In this document: positions 9,474-56,223 of the stretch, in pieces | Position numbering within the stretch: position 1 is the stretch's first letter | How the letters are laid out: every line of letters starts with the position of its first letter | NCBI GenBank assembly: GCA_965203855.1 | Contig: CBDBDN010000005.1 | Location: forward strand, 577,804 to 641,803 | DNA: 64,000 bases | Reading direction: 5' to 3' | Source: Dehalococcoidia bacterium | GTDB lineage: Bacteria > Chloroflexota > Dehalococcoidia > Lucifugimonadales > UBA3495 | Notes under the pieces: generated by a model | Database searches by the model: none | What the model was told of the DNA's origin: nothing | The model's input: only the letters and a program-made list of their open reading frames with translations | Made by a program: the position numbers and the translations under genes

Positions 9474-9597
9474 ACCGTCATTCCATCCTGCTGCCCGTTA
9501 TCTATACCCTTGCCCGTCTTTCACCCCTCCACCTGTCATTTATATTCTTACCCGTCATTCCCTATATGCCCCGTCATTCCGGCGCAAGCCGGAATCC
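9474..9597. repeat. family-A repeat cluster (degenerate CCGTCATT half-sites ending in a full hairpin)
   Basis: CCGTCATT-like cores at about 9475, 9513, 9532 and 9551, then CCGTCATTCCGGCGCAAGCCGGAATCC at 9571-9597. Confidence 0.75.
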
Positions 9598-11440: not shown

Positions 11441-11550
11441 CCAACCGTCGTTCCAACCCCCAACCGTCATTCCTACCCCCCAACCGTCATTCCTACCCCC
11501 CAACCGTCATTCCTACCCCCCAACCGTCATTCCGGCGCCAGCCGGAATCT
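11441..11550. repeat. family-A tandem array, 20-bp period, ending in a hairpin unit
   Basis: Four units of CAACCGTCATTCCTACCCCC (the first is degenerate), then CAACCGTCATTCCGGCGCCAGCCGGAATCT. Confidence 0.9.
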
Positions 11551-11592
11551 ATGGTTGCCGGTTCCGTTGCCGTTATGGGGGATTAAGACGCT

Positions 11593-11625
11593 GGATTCCG
11601 GCCTGCGCCGGAATGACGGTTGGGG
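11593..11625. repeat. family-A hairpin unit in inverted orientation
   Basis: GGATTCCGGCCTGCGCCGGAATGACGGTTGGGG. With 11521-11550 it forms an inverted pair about 42 bp apart. Confidence 0.85.
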
Positions 11626-15347: not shown

Positions 15348-15670
15348 CGGCGTTACCAGCAGGGCGGCAGAGGCAATCAGGCTGAACTGCGCGGCAAGGC
15401 CCAGCGATTTCAGCGGCGGCGGCGCCTCGTCCGCTTCATAGCGGGGATTCTGCGATACGGATGCCGTAAGACTGCCTCCCGGTCAGCAAGGTTGAGCGCG
15501 TCGGACTCTCCCGGCCCGGCTGCCGCACTGCAACACAGCCGCCGCCGCAATTACAGCGGCTGCGACTATGGTACAATTGCGGTTGACTGCCGAACCGCAA
15601 ATCACGGCCGGCCGACAACGCCCGCCGCAGTCTATCAATGCCAACCCGGTATAGTCAAACCTACTCCAGC

Positions 15671-15932
15671 CAACCGTCATTCCGAACCCCTAACCGTCAT
15701 TCCGGACCCCCAAACCGTCATTCCGAACCCCTAACCGTCATTCCAACCCCTAACCGTCATTCCAACCCCTAACCGTCATTCCAACCCCTAACCGTCATTC
15801 CAACCCCTAACCGTCATTCCAACCCCTAACCGTCATTCCAACCCCTAACCGTCATTCCAACCCCTAACCGTCATTCCAACCCCTAACCGTCATTCCAACC
15901 CCTAACCGTCATTGCGGCGCAAGCCGGAATCC
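15671..15932. repeat. family-A tandem array, 13 units (last 10 with an exact 19-bp period), ending in a hairpin unit
   Basis: AACCGTCATTCCAACCCCT repeated head to tail, ending CCGTCATTGCGGCGCAAGCCGGAATCC. Confidence 0.95.
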
Positions 15933-16058
15933 AATCCCTGCATCCAAGCACCCCGGCCTGCGCCGCAATATCGGACTTATCCCTATACCGACTAAAACGG
16001 AACCCCGCCATCCGAATGAACTTGCGGCGGTACTCAACCCCATCTCCGGAGGTCTCTC

Positions 16059-17213
16059 GTGATTGACCTGATGCTTACCGAATCGGAAAAGATGCTGCAA
16101 AATATGGTGCGGGATTTCGCCGAGCGCGAAGTAATGCCCCGCAGCGCCGAACTGGACGAAAAGGCCGAATTTTCTTGGGACAACTGGCGCGGCATGGCCC
16201 GGCTCGGACTTGCCGGCGTTGGCGTTGACCCGGCCTATGGCGGCAGCGGCGGCGGATTCCGCCAGTCCTCCATCGCCATCTCCGAAATCGCCCGCGCCGA
16301 CGCCGCCGCCAGCGTTTCCCTCGCCGCCCATCTCGGCCTCGGCCTGGAAACCATCGCCCGCTTCGGCAACGAGGAGCAGAAACAGCAGTACCTGCCCTCC
16401 CTGGCGTCCGGCGACGGCATCGCCGCCTGGGCGCTCACCGAGCCGGGCAGTGGCTCCGACGCCGCCGCTATGGCCACCGTCGCCGCCCGCCGCAACGGCT
16501 CCTGGGTGCTGAACGGCTCCAAGCAGTTCATCACCAACGCCGAAGTTGCCGAAACGCTCGTCGTGTTCGCCAATCAGGACCGTTCCGCCGGCTACCGGGG
16601 CGTCTGCGCCTTTATCGTTCCCGCCGGCACTCCCGGAATGCAGATTAACCCGCAGCACAACAAAATGGGTATCCGGGCCTCCAGCACCTGCGAAATCGTC
16701 TTTGAGGACGCTGAAATCCCCGCCGACAACATCATCGGCGAGCCGGGCATGGGCTTCCGCTACGCAATGGACATCCTGGACTCCAGCCGCATCTCCATTG
16801 CCGCCCAGTGCGTTGGCATCGGCCAGGCCGCTTTGGAGGAAGCCGTGCGCTACGCCCAGCTGCGGGAAAGTTTCGGCAAGCCGCTGGCCCAGCACCAGGC
16901 AATCCAGTTCAAGCTGGCCGACATCGCCGCCGCCGTCCATTCGGCGCGCATTGCTACGATGCACGCCGCTACTCTGCGCGACGATGGCCTGCCGTTCATC
17001 AACGAAGCGTCTATGGCCAAACTGCTGGCGTCCGAAATGTGCAACAACGCCGCCTACGAAGCGATGCAGATACACGGCGGCATCGGCTATTTCAAGGAAT
17101 CCCGCATTGAACGCATTTTCCGCGACGCCCGCGTAACCACCATCTACGAAGGCACTTCCGAAGTGCAGCGCATGATTATCGCCCGCCAGGTACTGGCGCA
17201 GTACCCGGTATAA
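16059..17213 (+). CDS. acyl-CoA dehydrogenase
   Basis: 384 aa. ALTEPGSGSD, QFITNA and IYEGTSEVQR motifs. Confidence 0.9.
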   Translation: MIDLMLTESEKMLQNMVRDFAEREVMPRSAELDEKAEFSWDNWRGMARLGLAGVGVDPAYGGSGGGFRQSSIAISEIARADAAASVSLAAHLGLGLETIARFGNEEQKQQYLPSLASGDGIAAWALTEPGSGSDAAAMATVAARRNGSWVLNGSKQFITNAEVAETLVVFANQDRSAGYRGVCAFIVPAGTPGMQINPQHNKMGIRASSTCEIVFEDAEIPADNIIGEPGMGFRYAMDILDSSRISIAAQCVGIGQAALEEAVRYAQLRESFGKPLAQHQAIQFKLADIAAAVHSARIATMHAATLRDDGLPFINEASMAKLLASEMCNNAAYEAMQIHGGIGYFKESRIERIFRDARVTTIYEGTSEVQRMIIARQVLAQYPV

Positions 17214-17229
17214 ACGCCGCCGCAATCCC

Positions 17230-17447
17230 CCATCCCGTCATTCGTCTTACGCCGGAAACCCAGTGCCATCCCCCCAAATCCGTCATTCCGGCGCCAGCCG
17301 AAATCCAAAGCCGCATCTCTCCCATCCCGTCATTCGTCTTACGCCGGAAACCCAGCGCCATCGCCCCAACTTCGTCATTCCGGCGCAGGCCGGAAACCAA
17401 AGCCGCATCTCCCCCATCCCGTCATTCCGGCGCAAGCCGGAATCCAG
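17230..17447. repeat. tandem 92-bp composite repeat (2 full units plus 1 partial), each built from two family-A-like hairpins
   Basis: Units at 17230-17321 and 17322-17413, partial unit at 17414-17447. Each unit contains CCGTCATTCGTCTTACGCCGGAAAC and CGTCATTCCGGCGCxxGCCGxAAxC. Confidence 0.85.
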
Positions 17448-29109: not shown

Positions 29110-29420
29110 GGGGCAAAAATAAACCCCATCCCTGTGAAGGGACGGGTTGCAGGGCCCGCGGTACCACCCTTCTTTTCCGAATGGCGGGTTGTCCGCCATG
29201 CAGAACGCTTGCTGTACACGGCCTATATCGGGGCTGAACCGCCGACCCTACGCGTCCGCCGGCCGGGATTCTGCGCTTGCGCCGCAACAAACCCGCCGGC
29301 AGCCATTTCAGGCCGGTCGCTCCGGGGCGAGTTCAAGGGCTTGCGACCGCCGGCTTGCACCAACCGCCGGCTCTCTGCTGGCCTGCCGCCCTTTACTACT
29401 CCCCATCACAGCGAACAACG
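29110..29420 (-). promoter_or_regulatory. T-box riboswitch leader, Leu (CUC) specifier, controlling the ilvB operon
   Basis: Minus strand contains, in canonical order: a GA/K-turn-like TGATGGGGAGTA; an AGAGAG box plus a GGTTGGTGCAAG distal loop; a specifier context TTGAA-CTC-G (GAG on plus at 29329-29331); the T-box sequence AGGGTGGTACCGCGGG (plus 29155-29170); and a terminator. Confidence 0.8.
29115..29146 (-). terminator. intrinsic terminator of the T-box leader
   Basis: Minus strand reads CCCGTCCCT-TCAC-AGGGATGGG (9-bp stem with one G-U pair) followed by GTTTATTTTT. Confidence 0.75.
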
Positions 29421-30537: not shown

Positions 30538-30750
30538 GCCGTCATTTCAGCGCCTTCAACCGTCATTCCGGGGCGCCCCCAGCTGTCATTCCGGGGGCGC
30601 CCTCAACCGTCATTCCGGCGCCCTCAACCGTCATTCTGGCGCTCTCAACCGTCATTCCGGCGAAAGCCGGAATCCACCGTCCTAATCTGCCGTTACGGTG
30701 GATGGAACCGGCAGTCATTGATTCCGGCGGAAGTCGGAATGACGGTTTTG
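30538..30750. repeat. family-A array (about 21-24-bp units), a hairpin, and an inverted hairpin
   Basis: Six CCGTCATTCCGG-type units between 30538 and 30676, ending CCGTCATTCCGGCGAAAGCCGGAATCC. An inverted copy GATTCCGGCGGAAGTCGGAATGACGG lies at about 30719-30746. Confidence 0.85.
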
Positions 30751-41838: not shown

Positions 41839-41874
41839 GGGGGGGGGGGGGGGGGGGGGGGGGGGAGAGAGAGA
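41839..41874. repeat. G27 homopolymer followed by (GA)5
   Basis: Counted directly: 27 G (41839-41865), then GAGAGAGAGA overlapping the last G. It occupies the position of GTGGGGGTGGGGAGATG in the paralogous copy. Confidence 0.95.
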
Positions 41875-43736: not shown

Positions 43737-43816
43737 GGGCGGATTCCGGCCTGCGCCCAAATGACGGTTAGGGGGCCGGAATAACGGTATTGGTAGGTAG
43801 CCGGAATGATGGCGTT
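43737..43816. repeat. family-A repeats (reverse orientation) inside duplication unit 1
   Basis: GGATTCCGGCCTGCGCCCAAATGACGG, CCGGAATAACGG, CCGGAATGATGG. Confidence 0.7.
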
Positions 43817-44153: not shown

Positions 44154-46094
44154 ATGAAACGCTTCCTCTTGCCGGCGGCATTAGCGGTAGCGGCGTTAGC
44201 GGTATTAGTTTGCGCCCTGCTCCTGCTCGCCGCCGGGCCAAAGCCGGCAGCAGTGCTGGACCGCTGGCTGGATTTGCCGGCGCCGACCGGCATTGCGGTC
44301 GTCAACGGCGAAAATCCGGGCGAAGTGATTATCTCTTGGAACCCGGTTGACGGCGCCGCTTTCTACCGCATCGCCTGGATTGCCGCCGCCGATGCGGATG
44401 CGATAACCGAAAACGGCGGCGACTGGCTGGATGCCATCGCCTATACCAACATATCCGCTGCTGCCGATACGGATACTGCTGCCGATACGGATGCCGATGC
44501 CGATACCGATACGGATGCCGATACCGATACCGATACGAATGCCGATACCGATACGGATGTCTATGCCGATACGGATGCCAATACCGATGACGATACTGGC
44601 ACACAGCATACCTTGACCCGCCTCAACCCGGGCGCCCGCTATACTTTTCTGGTCGGCAGCCTGCGCGTCAAAAACGGAACGCCGTACTGGTCGGCGCCGG
44701 CCGAACTTAACCTGACTACGGGCGTGCTGCCCTATGACCCGTTCCGCCGCAGCACCGTGCCGGTGGGCCTGACTGCCAATGAACCGGGCGCATTTGGCGG
44801 ATATACTCTGTTTGCGGCGCGGAACGAGACACCCTATCTAGTTGACGCGGACGGCCATCTGGTACACCACTGGGATGCTGCGGAGATCATTCATGCTCGT
44901 CTGCTTGAAAACGGCAATCTGTTGGGATCTGATTACGATGGGACGATCTATGAAATTGACCCGGCGGGCAATTTGCTGTGGGAATACCGGTATCCTATCT
45001 GGCAGCATCACGACTTTCTGAAACTGCCTAATGGCAATGTGCTGATGATAGTGCGGGAGCTCAAAACGCAGGCGGAAGCCGTCGCCGCCGGCGCCAACCC
45101 CGCATTCGTGAGTCCTGAGGGGCTGAACAACGAAAGGATTATTGAAGTTCGTCCCATCTACCCGGACCGCGCCGAAGTCGTCTGGGAATGGTCGCTATGG
45201 GACCATCTGGTGCAGGATTACGATCCCTCCAAAGCTAACTACGGAAACGTATCCGAACACCCGGAACTGGTTGACATTAACTATACCCTGCGGCAGCTGT
45301 CTCTGACGCAGCGAGCAACCAAAGATGACCTGCTGCACGCCAACGGATTGGATTACCACCCGGAGCTGGACCAGATTATGTTTTCGGCGCGCAATATGAG
45401 CGAAATCTGGATCATTGACCACAGTACTACTATCGCGGAAGCCGCCGGGCATAGCGGCGGCAACGGCGGCAAGGGCGGCGATTTGCTGTATCGCTGGGGC
45501 AATCCCCAAACTTATCGCGCCGGCTCTTTCGCCGACCAGCAGCTGTTCTGGCAGCATAATCCTTACTGGATACCGGAAGGGTGGCCCGGCGCCGGCAACG
45601 TTCTGATTTTCAACAATGGCGACGAGTACGAAGGGCGTTATCTGGACTACTCGTCGGTGATAGAAATCACACTGCCGGCATCCGGCTACGGCTATGCAAT
45701 GGACGCGGGCGACGGCGTCCGCTACGGCCCAACCCAACCGGTCTGGACTTATACGGCGGAAAATCCCCCCGACTTTTTATCGCGGCGGCTTTCCAGCGCG
45801 CAACGCTTGCCCAACGGCAACACATTGGTCATCGACGGCTTGCAAGGCGTGATTTTTGAGGTTACGCCGGACGGCGCTACGGTGTGGCGGTATGTGAACC
45901 CGGTAGTAGGGAAAGGGCCGATTTACCAGGGCGGTACTATTGCAGTGGCGCAAACCGCGCGGGAGCAGCCGGGGCCGTTCTGGCGCAATGCCCTCTTTCG
46001 CGCCTACCGCTACGCGCCGGACTATCCGGGCCTGCAACACTACGATTTGACGCCCAAAGGCACCGTGGAACTCTATCCCGATGACGGGCAATAG
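44154..46094 (+). CDS. secreted FN3 + ASST-like beta-propeller protein, copy 2
   Basis: ATG with GGGGAG upstream. Signal peptide MKRFLLPAALAVAALAVLVCALLLLAAG. About 85 percent identical by eye to copy 1. Contains a D/T/A acidic repeat insertion. Confidence 0.65.
   Translation: MKRFLLPAALAVAALAVLVCALLLLAAGPKPAAVLDRWLDLPAPTGIAVVNGENPGEVIISWNPVDGAAFYRIAWIAAADADAITENGGDWLDAIAYTNISAAADTDTAADTDADADTDTDADTDTDTNADTDTDVYADTDANTDDDTGTQHTLTRLNPGARYTFLVGSLRVKNGTPYWSAPAELNLTTGVLPYDPFRRSTVPVGLTANEPGAFGGYTLFAARNETPYLVDADGHLVHHWDAAEIIHARLLENGNLLGSDYDGTIYEIDPAGNLLWEYRYPIWQHHDFLKLPNGNVLMIVRELKTQAEAVAAGANPAFVSPEGLNNERIIEVRPIYPDRAEVVWEWSLWDHLVQDYDPSKANYGNVSEHPELVDINYTLRQLSLTQRATKDDLLHANGLDYHPELDQIMFSARNMSEIWIIDHSTTIAEAAGHSGGNGGKGGDLLYRWGNPQTYRAGSFADQQLFWQHNPYWIPEGWPGAGNVLIFNNGDEYEGRYLDYSSVIEITLPASGYGYAMDAGDGVRYGPTQPVWTYTAENPPDFLSRRLSSAQRLPNGNTLVIDGLQGVIFEVTPDGATVWRYVNPVVGKGPIYQGGTIAVAQTAREQPGPFWRNALFRAYRYAPDYPGLQHYDLTPKGTVELYPDDGQ
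44464..44597 (+). repeat. in-frame hexanucleotide-type (GAT ACN / GAT GCC) microsatellite encoding (DT/DA)n
   Basis: Encodes ADTDTAADTDADADTDTDADTDTDTNADTDTDVYADTDANTDDDT, where copy 1 has only a short TDTGTDTDSD. Confidence 0.9.
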
Positions 46095-46137: not shown

Positions 46138-46246
46138 GGGGCGGATTCCGGCTTGCGCCGGAATGACGGTATTGGTGGATAGCCGGAATGACGGTTAGGA
46201 TGCCGGAATGACGGTATTGGTGAATAGCCGAAACGATGGCGTTGCA
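46138..46246. repeat. family-A repeats (reverse orientation; 20-25-bp units) inside duplication unit 2
   Basis: GGATTCCGGCTTGCGCCGGAATGACGG, then three CCGGAATGACGGT-type units. Confidence 0.8.
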
Positions 46247-55057: not shown

Positions 55058-55098
55058 AGCGTGCCGTCAAACGCGCTGCCGTTCCCGCGCCCAACGCC

Positions 55099-55387
55099 GC
55101 CATTCCGAACCCTTACAACCGCCATTCCGAACCCTTACAACCGTCATTCCGAACCCTTACAACCGTCATTCCGAACCCTTACAACCGTCATTCCGAACTC
55201 TTACAACCGTCATTCCGAACTCTTACAACCGCCATTCCGAACTCTTACAACCGCCATTCTGAACTCTTACAACCGCCATTCCGAACTCTTACAACCGTCA
55301 TTCCGAACTCTTACAACCGCCATTCCGAACCCTTACAACCGCCATTCCGAACCCTTACAACCGTCATTCCGGCGCAAGCCGAAATCC
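55099..55387. repeat. family-A tandem array, 12 units of 22 bp plus a terminal hairpin unit
   Basis: G(C/T)CATTCCGAAC(C/T)CTTACAACC repeated head to tail, ending GTCATTCCGGCGCAAGCCGAAATCC. Confidence 0.95.
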
Positions 55388-56126: not shown

Positions 56127-56223
56127 TCGTCATTCCGAACCCTTATAACCGTTCAAGGCGCGTCGTCAAATGCGCCGTCATTCCGAACCTTTATAACCGT
56201 CATTCCGGCTTGCGCCGGAATCC
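56127..56223. repeat. family-A units (two CGTCATTCCGAACC(C/T)TTATAACC half-sites plus a hairpin)
   Basis: Ends GTCATTCCGGCTTGCGCCGGAATCC. Confidence 0.8.

Follow-up and report, generated by a model that had tools for sequence, protein, structure and literature searches.

The tandem array that precedes an acyl-CoA dehydrogenase gene in this Dehalococcoidia bacterium is made of truncated copies of a dispersed hairpin repeat. Judged by its sequence, this repeat is not an unknown element but belongs to a described family, the NTS (consensus CGTCATTCCCGCGMAVGCGGGAATCYRG) and the wider class of Ssn-related motifs (SRM) reported by Chenal et al. (Nat Commun 2025; PMC11893778). We favor, with moderate confidence, the reading that the array is a minisatellite of truncated SRM copies, which would have arisen by hairpin-provoked copy-back slippage followed by homogenisation, and that arrays of this kind most likely have no regulatory role and are selfish or neutral by-products. 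An earlier note on this DNA is confirmed in its observation and partly supported in its interpretation. In what follows, the window is the whole stretch of DNA that was analyzed (64,000 nucleotides), and coordinates without a contig name refer to it.

Between 15672 and 15903, direct reading of the sequence gives 12 head-to-tail units, each made of AAC-CGTCATTCC and a C-rich spacer, with 12 exact CGTCATTCC half-sites from 15675 to 15888. The first three units are 20-21 nt long and have the spacers GAACCCCT, GGACCCCCA, and GAACCCCT; the next nine are identical 19-mers (AACCGTCATTCCAACCCCT). For the interval 15672-15913, Tandem Repeats Finder, run on the window, reported a period of 19, 12.5 copies, and 96% matches. 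The terminal unit (AACCGTCATTGCGGCGCAAGCCGGAATCC, 15904-15932) is a complete hairpin that lies in phase with the array, and the earlier count of 13 units, the last 10 at an exact 19-bp period, is right if this hairpin is included. Its stem has one G.G mismatch (ATTGCGGC/GCCGGAAT), and the predicted DNA fold has a free energy of -6.6 kcal/mol, against -9.0 kcal/mol for the consensus. The array lies between a match to a sigma-70-like promoter and the start of the acyl-CoA dehydrogenase gene (Table 1). If this promoter match is used, the array would be part of the 5' leader of the gene. No such array was found upstream of the orthologous gene in the eight relatives inspected. A permissive Rfam scan of positions 15500-16100 returned only a chance miRNA match, and a scan of the window at the gathering threshold gave no match to the repeat. 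The sole Rfam match in the window is a T-box leader at 29135-29418 on the minus strand (99.8 bits, above the Rfam gathering score). A CRISPR was considered for the array and rejected, given the lack of unique spacers and the period of 19-23 nt.

Table 1. Coordinates of the SRM features of the window, of the neighboring elements, and of two GIY-YIG matches elsewhere in the genome.
Feature	Position	Strand	Description
SRM locus	9474..9597	+	3 half-sites and 1 hairpin
20-nt array	11441..11625	+	4.7 copies, spacer TACCCCC, runs into an inverted SRM pair
Sigma-70-like promoter match	15550..15577	+	upstream of the array; consensus match only
Truncated SRM array	15672..15903	+	12 units, each AAC + CGTCATTCC (5' flank and first 5 nt of the left stem arm) + C-rich spacer
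Terminal complete SRM/NTS-type hairpin	15904..15932	+	AACCGTC-ATTGCGGC-GCAA-GCCGGAAT-CC; left arm 15911-15918, loop 15919-22, right arm 15923-30
Acyl-CoA dehydrogenase gene	16059-17213		array 15672-15932 lies between the promoter-like site and its start
Higher-order SRM array	17219..17447	+	45-47 and 92-nt periods, complete and degenerate hairpin units
21-nt array	30538..30750	+	5.7 copies, spacer GGCGCCCT (whole left arm kept), ends in an inverted SRM pair (30649 +, 30736 -)
Array with hairpin	46138..46246	-	3 half-sites at 20-25-nt spacing, and a hairpin
22-nt array	55097..55387	+	12.5 copies, mostly of the mutated core CCGCCATTCC, and a terminal hairpin
SRM locus	56127..56223	+	3 half-sites and 1 hairpin
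HRDC+GIY-YIG protein gene, 301 aa	C8:181437-182342		not adjoining SRMs, not Ssn-like
Weak GIY-YIG ORF, ~110 aa	C5:130311-130430		not adjoining SRMs, not Ssn-like

The repeat is frequent in the window, where CCGTCATTCC occurs 40 times while shuffled sequences give an expectation of 0.14. The earlier note had listed 13 loci for the hairpin or its half-site. The motif is present at all 13 and the hairpin at 12 of them; at 43737-43816 there are only degenerate half-sites. In the locus at 11441-11625, 86 nt separate the half-site at 11524 (+) from that at 11610 (-), which is the spacing of the MITE-like composite described below. The array at 55097-55371 is homogenised for the core CCGCCATTCC, which is without the GTC triplet. 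It is one example that bears out the earlier view that these arrays were amplified and made uniform in place. The window also holds repeats of other kinds. An unbroken run of 27 G at 41839-41865, followed by (AG)4, could be a slippage-prone tract or an artefact of assembly or basecalling. At 44458-44596, a higher-order tandem repeat that has no relation to SRM shows periods of 12 nt (CCGATGCCGATA) and 42 nt and about 11 copies.

We took a census of the repeat in the whole genome assembly (3.38 Mb, 62% G+C, 9 contigs), using our own crude gene calls, which cover 82% of it. The genome contains 1635 half-sites CGTCATTCC and 655 hairpins of the form ATTCCGGC-N4-GCCGGAAT, distributed over 597 loci. 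A genome-wide test of intergenic enrichment, as the earlier note had proposed, gave a clear answer: 1452 of the 1635 half-sites (89%) and 606 of the 655 hairpins fall outside these crude calls, i.e., in 18% of the genome. The density per kb of gap is 1.34 between convergent genes, 0.94 between tandem genes, and 0.73 between divergent genes. The motif CGTC flanks 614 of the 655 hairpins on one side only; hence, the hairpin is an oriented element. The loops are GCAA or GAAA in 501 copies and the complementary TTGC or TTTC in 53, which indicates that the hairpin of one strand is the relevant form. The consensus GGAATC includes a C after the palindrome. The full SRM of this genome comprises a C-tract, AAC, CGTC, an 8-bp stem (ATTCCGGC/GCCGGAAT), a GNRA-type loop, and this C, and the upstream consensus of C-tract and AAC is present at solitary hairpins too. 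The consensus DNA hairpin is predicted to be stable (-9.0 kcal/mol, z = -4.7). Translation of the hairpin yields the pseudo-peptides VIPAQAGI, SFRRKPES, RHSGASRNP, and IPACAGMT, so that the open reading frames of the VIPAQAGI and SFRRKPES types are spurious, as the earlier note had supposed.

Inverted pairs of SRM also occur as a MITE-like composite of about 113 bp, with 122 copies genome-wide, in which the two SRM are 83-88 nt apart with their CGTC flanks outward and enclose a core of 45 bp. The window has two copies of it (11524-11619 and 30649-30745). The core has a small palindrome of its own (CCATTAC/GTAATGG) and is found in either orientation; compared by eye with the ends of ssnA genes, it revealed no homology. 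Arrays of half-sites run outward from both sides of the composite. Next to an SRM pair, the ends of two contigs carry an identical sequence of 200 bp (C5 1473789-1473988 and C4 129299-129503), and repeats may be what breaks this assembly there.

The assignment to NTS/SRM rests on several comparisons. The hairpin reads CGTCATTCC-GGC-GNAA-GCC-GGAATC in this genome, and the sole difference between its consensus CGTCATTCCGGCGMAAGCCGGAATCC and the NTS consensus CGTCATTCCCGCGMAVGCGGGAATCYRG is a compensatory change of a stem pair from C:G to G:C. The published degenerate SRM pattern has 542 matches in the genome, against 14, 24, and 26 in three genomes simulated with a first-order Markov model, and 469 of 626 oriented hairpins satisfy it. 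Exact copies of the 27-mer are found in MAGs from many phyla, and the variants CCCGC, CCGGC, and CCTGC occur side by side in species of the same genus. NTS/SRM in turn extends the dRS3 repeat known from Neisseria (PMC11893778; PMC1797815). The element, which the earlier note did not recognise as a described one, is therefore already known. The classification as a REP/BIME-like family holds in that the repeat is pervasive, oriented, intergenic, and hairpin-forming, and fails on the partner, since the known one is SsnA and not a RAYT. The comparison with REP is an analogy, and one that the authors of the Ssn study made too.

The arrays of the genome have a common and polar architecture. Their dominant periods are 19-23 nt, with a peak at 20-21 nt, i.e., about two helical turns. 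Among the 202 arrays with at least four units, 185 have a complete hairpin as their 3'-most unit, 169 have it at that place only, and one has it as the first unit. This upholds genome-wide the earlier claim that arrays end in one complete hairpin. Left halves occur as orphans 1131 times, and right halves 226 times. Non-terminal units diverge from the hairpin after ATTCC (237), after ATTCCG (135), or after the full left arm (101), and only 23 are complete. The break is followed by a C-run ending in (A/T)AC and then by the next CGTC. As solitary hairpins carry the C-tract and AAC too, the part of the unit that varies between loci is the 5' extension of the element itself joined to a truncated left arm. 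What had been described as a variable 3' part is thus not a module of its own but the place where a truncated left arm meets the C-rich 5' extension of the following unit. We also considered that the spacer could be the 3' flank of the hairpin, as expected from simple deletions of the hairpin. This fits the array at 15672 (TCC-AACCCCT and TCC-AATCCCT) and fails where the MITE-like core follows the hairpin, and we rejected it. In the arrays with at least four units, we found no gradient of unit identity toward the hairpin; hence, growth need not take place at the hairpin-proximal end. At loci with two units, the DNA upstream of the first unit shares with the spacer a short and often diverged tail, which does not demonstrate microhomology.

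The polarity of the arrays, the positions at which the left arm breaks off, and the C-run after the break together lead us to a copy-back model. Synthesis of the hairpin-bearing (forward) strand would stall at the stem, or this strand would be nicked just 5' of the stem. The 3' end, lying within the left arm (...ATTCC or ...ATTCCGGC), could then slip back to the C-rich tract about 20 nt upstream and copy again the C-tract, AAC, CGTC, and the left arm. A unit without loop and right arm would thereby be added 5' of an intact hairpin. From two units on, slipped-strand mispairing or unequal exchange would expand, contract, and homogenise the array locally. We infer both the step of stalling and copy-back and the lack of a function of the arrays.

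A partner enzyme of SRM is known. SsnA, a GIY-YIG nuclease of 94 aa, binds the forward strand as single-stranded DNA only and cuts it, and no other strand, a few nucleotides 5' of the CGTC motif, for which the GTC triplet is needed; it also cuts a site built from two separate half-molecules and does not bind RNA (PMC11893778). The layout NTS-ssnA-NTS resembles that of an insertion sequence (IS), and the authors speculate on an IS-like past; of the genomes that have more than 200 SRM, 19% are without a homolog (PMC11893778). We did not find ssnA in our genome, either by tblastn or by whole-genome search of the assembly, which is 98% complete and in nine contigs. SRM flank none of its GIY-YIG matches, which were UvrC, an HRDC+GIY-YIG protein of 301 aa, and a small ORF with a weak match. 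Translation of the four closest-spaced of the ten inverted SRM pairs that are 150-3000 bp apart gave no remnant of the gene, and the two sites syntenic to the ssnA cassettes of relatives contain only an SRM array or a 113-bp SRM pair. A RAYT elsewhere in the genome, for which the earlier note had suggested a search, was not found either: Y1_Tnp (PF01797) has zero matches in the genome, and the same search was positive in six of 14 control genomes. Recombinases of the IS110/Piv type (PF01548), a family with target repeats as in the case of dRS3 and the filamentous phages of Neisseria, also had zero matches in the genome.

The situation in the other species of the genus is different. A gene encoding a single-domain GIY-YIG protein of 95 aa is present in 19 of the 53 other species. 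At the three loci that we inspected (in the congeners G020, G022, and G023) it lies between inverted copies of exactly this hairpin, the upstream one overlapping the start region of the gene. Runs of half-sites adjoin such SRM-ssnA-SRM cassettes in congeners. Congeners with ssnA have more SRM than those without it (medians of 87 and 30.5, p = 4e-4). Our genome has nonetheless the highest SRM load of the 54 species, with 640 matches to a relaxed pattern against at most 330 elsewhere. For the nuclease of the congeners, Pfam gives GIY-YIG only, and solved structures and NCBIfam gave nothing informative. It has more than 5300 single-domain relatives of about 95 aa and, among the best 120 matches, the named ones are about 70-77% identical and come from several other phyla, which suggests that ssnA has often been transferred horizontally.

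The orientation of SRM is strongly biased relative to the composition of the DNA strands. We measured GC skew on coding sequence only, with the SRM loci masked, and found the forward strand of SRM on the locally C-rich strand in 74% of the loci (p = 2.5e-29). Where the absolute skew exceeds 0.12, 88 of 96 loci are concordant, and this applies to single copies and arrays alike. The skew is a regional property of the chromosome and not of gene direction: its correlation with gene strand is 0.16 and its lag-1 autocorrelation 0.63. With respect to the genes on either side, SRM orientation is close to random (57% antisense). A complete relative, OY762063.1, shows the same bias, since 136 of 138 half-sites are concordant in the 11 windows of strongest skew (absolute values of about 0.15 or more) among twenty samples of 20 kb. 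In this chromosome of 2.7 Mb, the GC skew of 20-kb samples reaches ±0.25 and its sign flips in large blocks, values far above the usual replication skew. In most bacteria the G-rich strand is the leading strand. If this applies here, the forward strand of the hairpin avoids the lagging-strand template. The bias fits selection against self-cleavage, the loss of hairpins on an exposed template, or a purely compositional preference for C-rich flanks, with C-rich 5' extensions or targets being commoner on the C-rich strand.

Polar arrays are not restricted to this genome. A pattern of three successive half-sites has 235 matches here. It is present in 29 of the 53 congeners, with at most 47 matches in any one of them, and when normalised to the number of SRM its frequency here is six times that in congeners. 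Outside the genus, we found it in another Dehalococcoidia chromosome (159 matches), in one genome of Binatia, in one of Phycisphaeraceae, and in one of Obscuribacterium, and did not find it in ten hairpin-bearing genomes of Pseudomonadota. In the Phycisphaeraceae and Obscuribacterium genomes the unit is CGTCATTCCGGCGAAAGC joined to CGTCATTCC, cut where the right arm (GCCG) and the 5' flank (ACCG) have CCG in common. The junction is another one but follows the same logic. A sampled piece of another Dehalococcoidia MAG (OX638353.1, 3723-4820) carries an array of a different, higher-order type, with 14 SRM-bearing units and a period of 79 bp. Going one step further, we propose, tentatively and with more doubt than conviction, that the polar arrays of left halves are fossils of how SRM multiplies, namely by strand-specific copy-back coupled to replication, which would neither need SsnA nor involve transposition. 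This would explain why the largest load is found in a genome without ssnA, why orientation follows strand composition almost perfectly where the skew is strong, why the 5' part alone of the element is amplified, and why such arrays occur independently in Chloroflexota, Binatia, Planctomycetota, and Melainabacteria.

Other processes could have produced the arrays. One might expect them to be the footprints of serial, SsnA-dependent insertions just 5' of an existing SRM, with loop and right arm being lost later from the older copies. Cleavage by SsnA is confined to the forward strand and falls a few nucleotides upstream of NTS, and the layout NTS-ssnA-NTS is IS-like (PMC11893778); moreover, half-site runs lie beside SRM-ssnA-SRM in congeners, and some arrays have several complete hairpins with periods of 37-43 nt. 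Yet the genome with the most arrays, the one studied here, has no ssnA, and the ssnA-less congener G045 has 47 matches to the triple pattern. Random losses would leave complete hairpins scattered along the arrays, whereas a hairpin at the 3' end is found in 185 of 202, and the truncation points nearly coincide in 86% of the non-terminal units. Stretches of 9-17 identical units also fit slippage better than repeated insertions followed by identical deletions, and we consider serial insertion unlikely. The mobility of a REP/BIME family, spread by the Y1 transposase RAYT, would account for hundreds of short, oriented, intergenic palindromes and for the 122 BIME-like inverted pairs with their spacing of 83-88 nt. 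This reading is already largely refuted, and we give it almost no credence: the genome has no PF01797 match although six of 14 controls were positive, the sequence fits the SRM consensus and not the GTAG-type head of REP, and the gene associated with the repeat in relatives encodes a GIY-YIG nuclease. As for the length of the arrays, repeats of short period are easily mis-assembled, but the same architecture recurs at 151-202 loci of this genome and the same kinds of array are found in many independent single-contig relatives, including exact arrays of 17 units, which makes an assembly artefact extremely improbable.

The remaining alternatives concern function. Arrays could serve a protein recognising ACCGTCATTCC, either as iteron-like binding platforms or as split half-substrates, and be under selection, for example for a role in DNA organisation or in the regulation of flanking genes. 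The half-site is conserved while the spacers vary, the peak of the periods at 20-21 nt is close to two helical turns, SsnA cuts a site assembled from two half-molecules (PMC11893778), and the array at 15672-15932 lies between a promoter-like site and the start of the acyl-CoA dehydrogenase. Against this, arrays are found in gaps of all three kinds (tandem, convergent, and divergent) and are not at orthologous loci in eight relatives, they have between 2 and 15 copies without preference for any number, some are homogenised for cores lacking the GTC triplet that cleavage needs, and no candidate binding protein was found. A selected platform therefore seems to us quite unlikely. It would be still less probable that the hairpin acts at the RNA level, as a terminator or stabiliser of transcripts to which the arrays are incidental, even if about 80% of the copies have GNRA loops on one strand and the density is slightly higher in convergent gaps (1.34 per kb). 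The orientation is near random relative to genes and tracks the composition of the DNA strands instead, the repeat has no Rfam match, and SsnA does not bind RNA (PMC11893778). An intrinsic terminator in particular was rejected, as the stem is not followed by a T-run and a search for terminator-like sites gave none. Hence, we retain the copy-back minisatellite as the preferred reading of the arrays.

These observations have consequences beyond the locus. The genome is a natural experiment, in which a record load of SRM coexists with the absence of the nuclease. The arrays record the direction and the break-points of copying events, and the strand bias ties SRM to a process involving single strands. 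If the copy-back model holds, it provides a testable, enzyme-independent route from structured repeats to the seeds of minisatellites. If it fails, a repeat that seemed new will still have been placed cleanly in a known family. Annotators should also be warned that hundreds of ORFs of the 'VIPAQAGI / SFRRKPES' type are artefacts.

The closest known system is the NTS/SRM family of Chenal et al., with which our repeat shares CGTC and a stem of the form ATTCC-N-GC, a GNRA-like loop, the C past the palindrome, a 5' flank that sets the orientation, intergenic copies by the hundreds, the distribution across phyla and, in congeners, the SRM-ssnA-SRM cassette. It differs from NTS in its sixth stem pair, G:C here and C:G there, and in a conserved C-rich 5' extension. 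In addition, no ssnA is detectable in our genome despite the highest load of the genus, the orientation follows GC skew, which the paper does not report, and the left half is amplified into polar arrays of 19-23 nt, which the paper leaves undescribed. Its text uses 'tandem' zero times and 'array' once (PMC11893778). The palindromic core of the NTS/SRM motif corresponds to dRS3 (ATTCCC-N8-GGGAAT), whose exact pattern has only two occurrences in our genome. In Neisseria, dRS3 builds the NIMEs, dynamic intergenic arrays whose repeat number varies between strains, in which complete 20-bp dRS3 palindromes alternate with RS elements of 50-150 bp (PMC1797815). A minority of our arrays have complete hairpins and periods of 37-48 nt or longer. 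The typical units here measure 19-23 nt, lack the loop and the right arm, and leave the hairpin to the 3'-most unit. Arrays of truncated, polar units are apparently undescribed, and the array-forming behavior, called unusual in the earlier note, is unmentioned in the Ssn paper and distinct from that of NIMEs. With REP/BIME and RAYT the repeat has in common that oriented extragenic palindromes are recognised as single-stranded hairpins, that inverted pairs occur, and that the gene of the enzyme is flanked by its own repeats. It has no Y1 transposase here and another head sequence, and its arrays are direct repeats of half-elements instead of alternating inverted REPs. Finally, the arrays share with minisatellites and VNTRs, which evolve by slipped-strand mispairing at repeats that form structures, the short period, the local homogenisation, a copy number that varies from locus to locus, and the degenerate outer units. 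Unlike these, all arrays here derive from the same dispersed element, and each is anchored at a fixed end to one complete hairpin.
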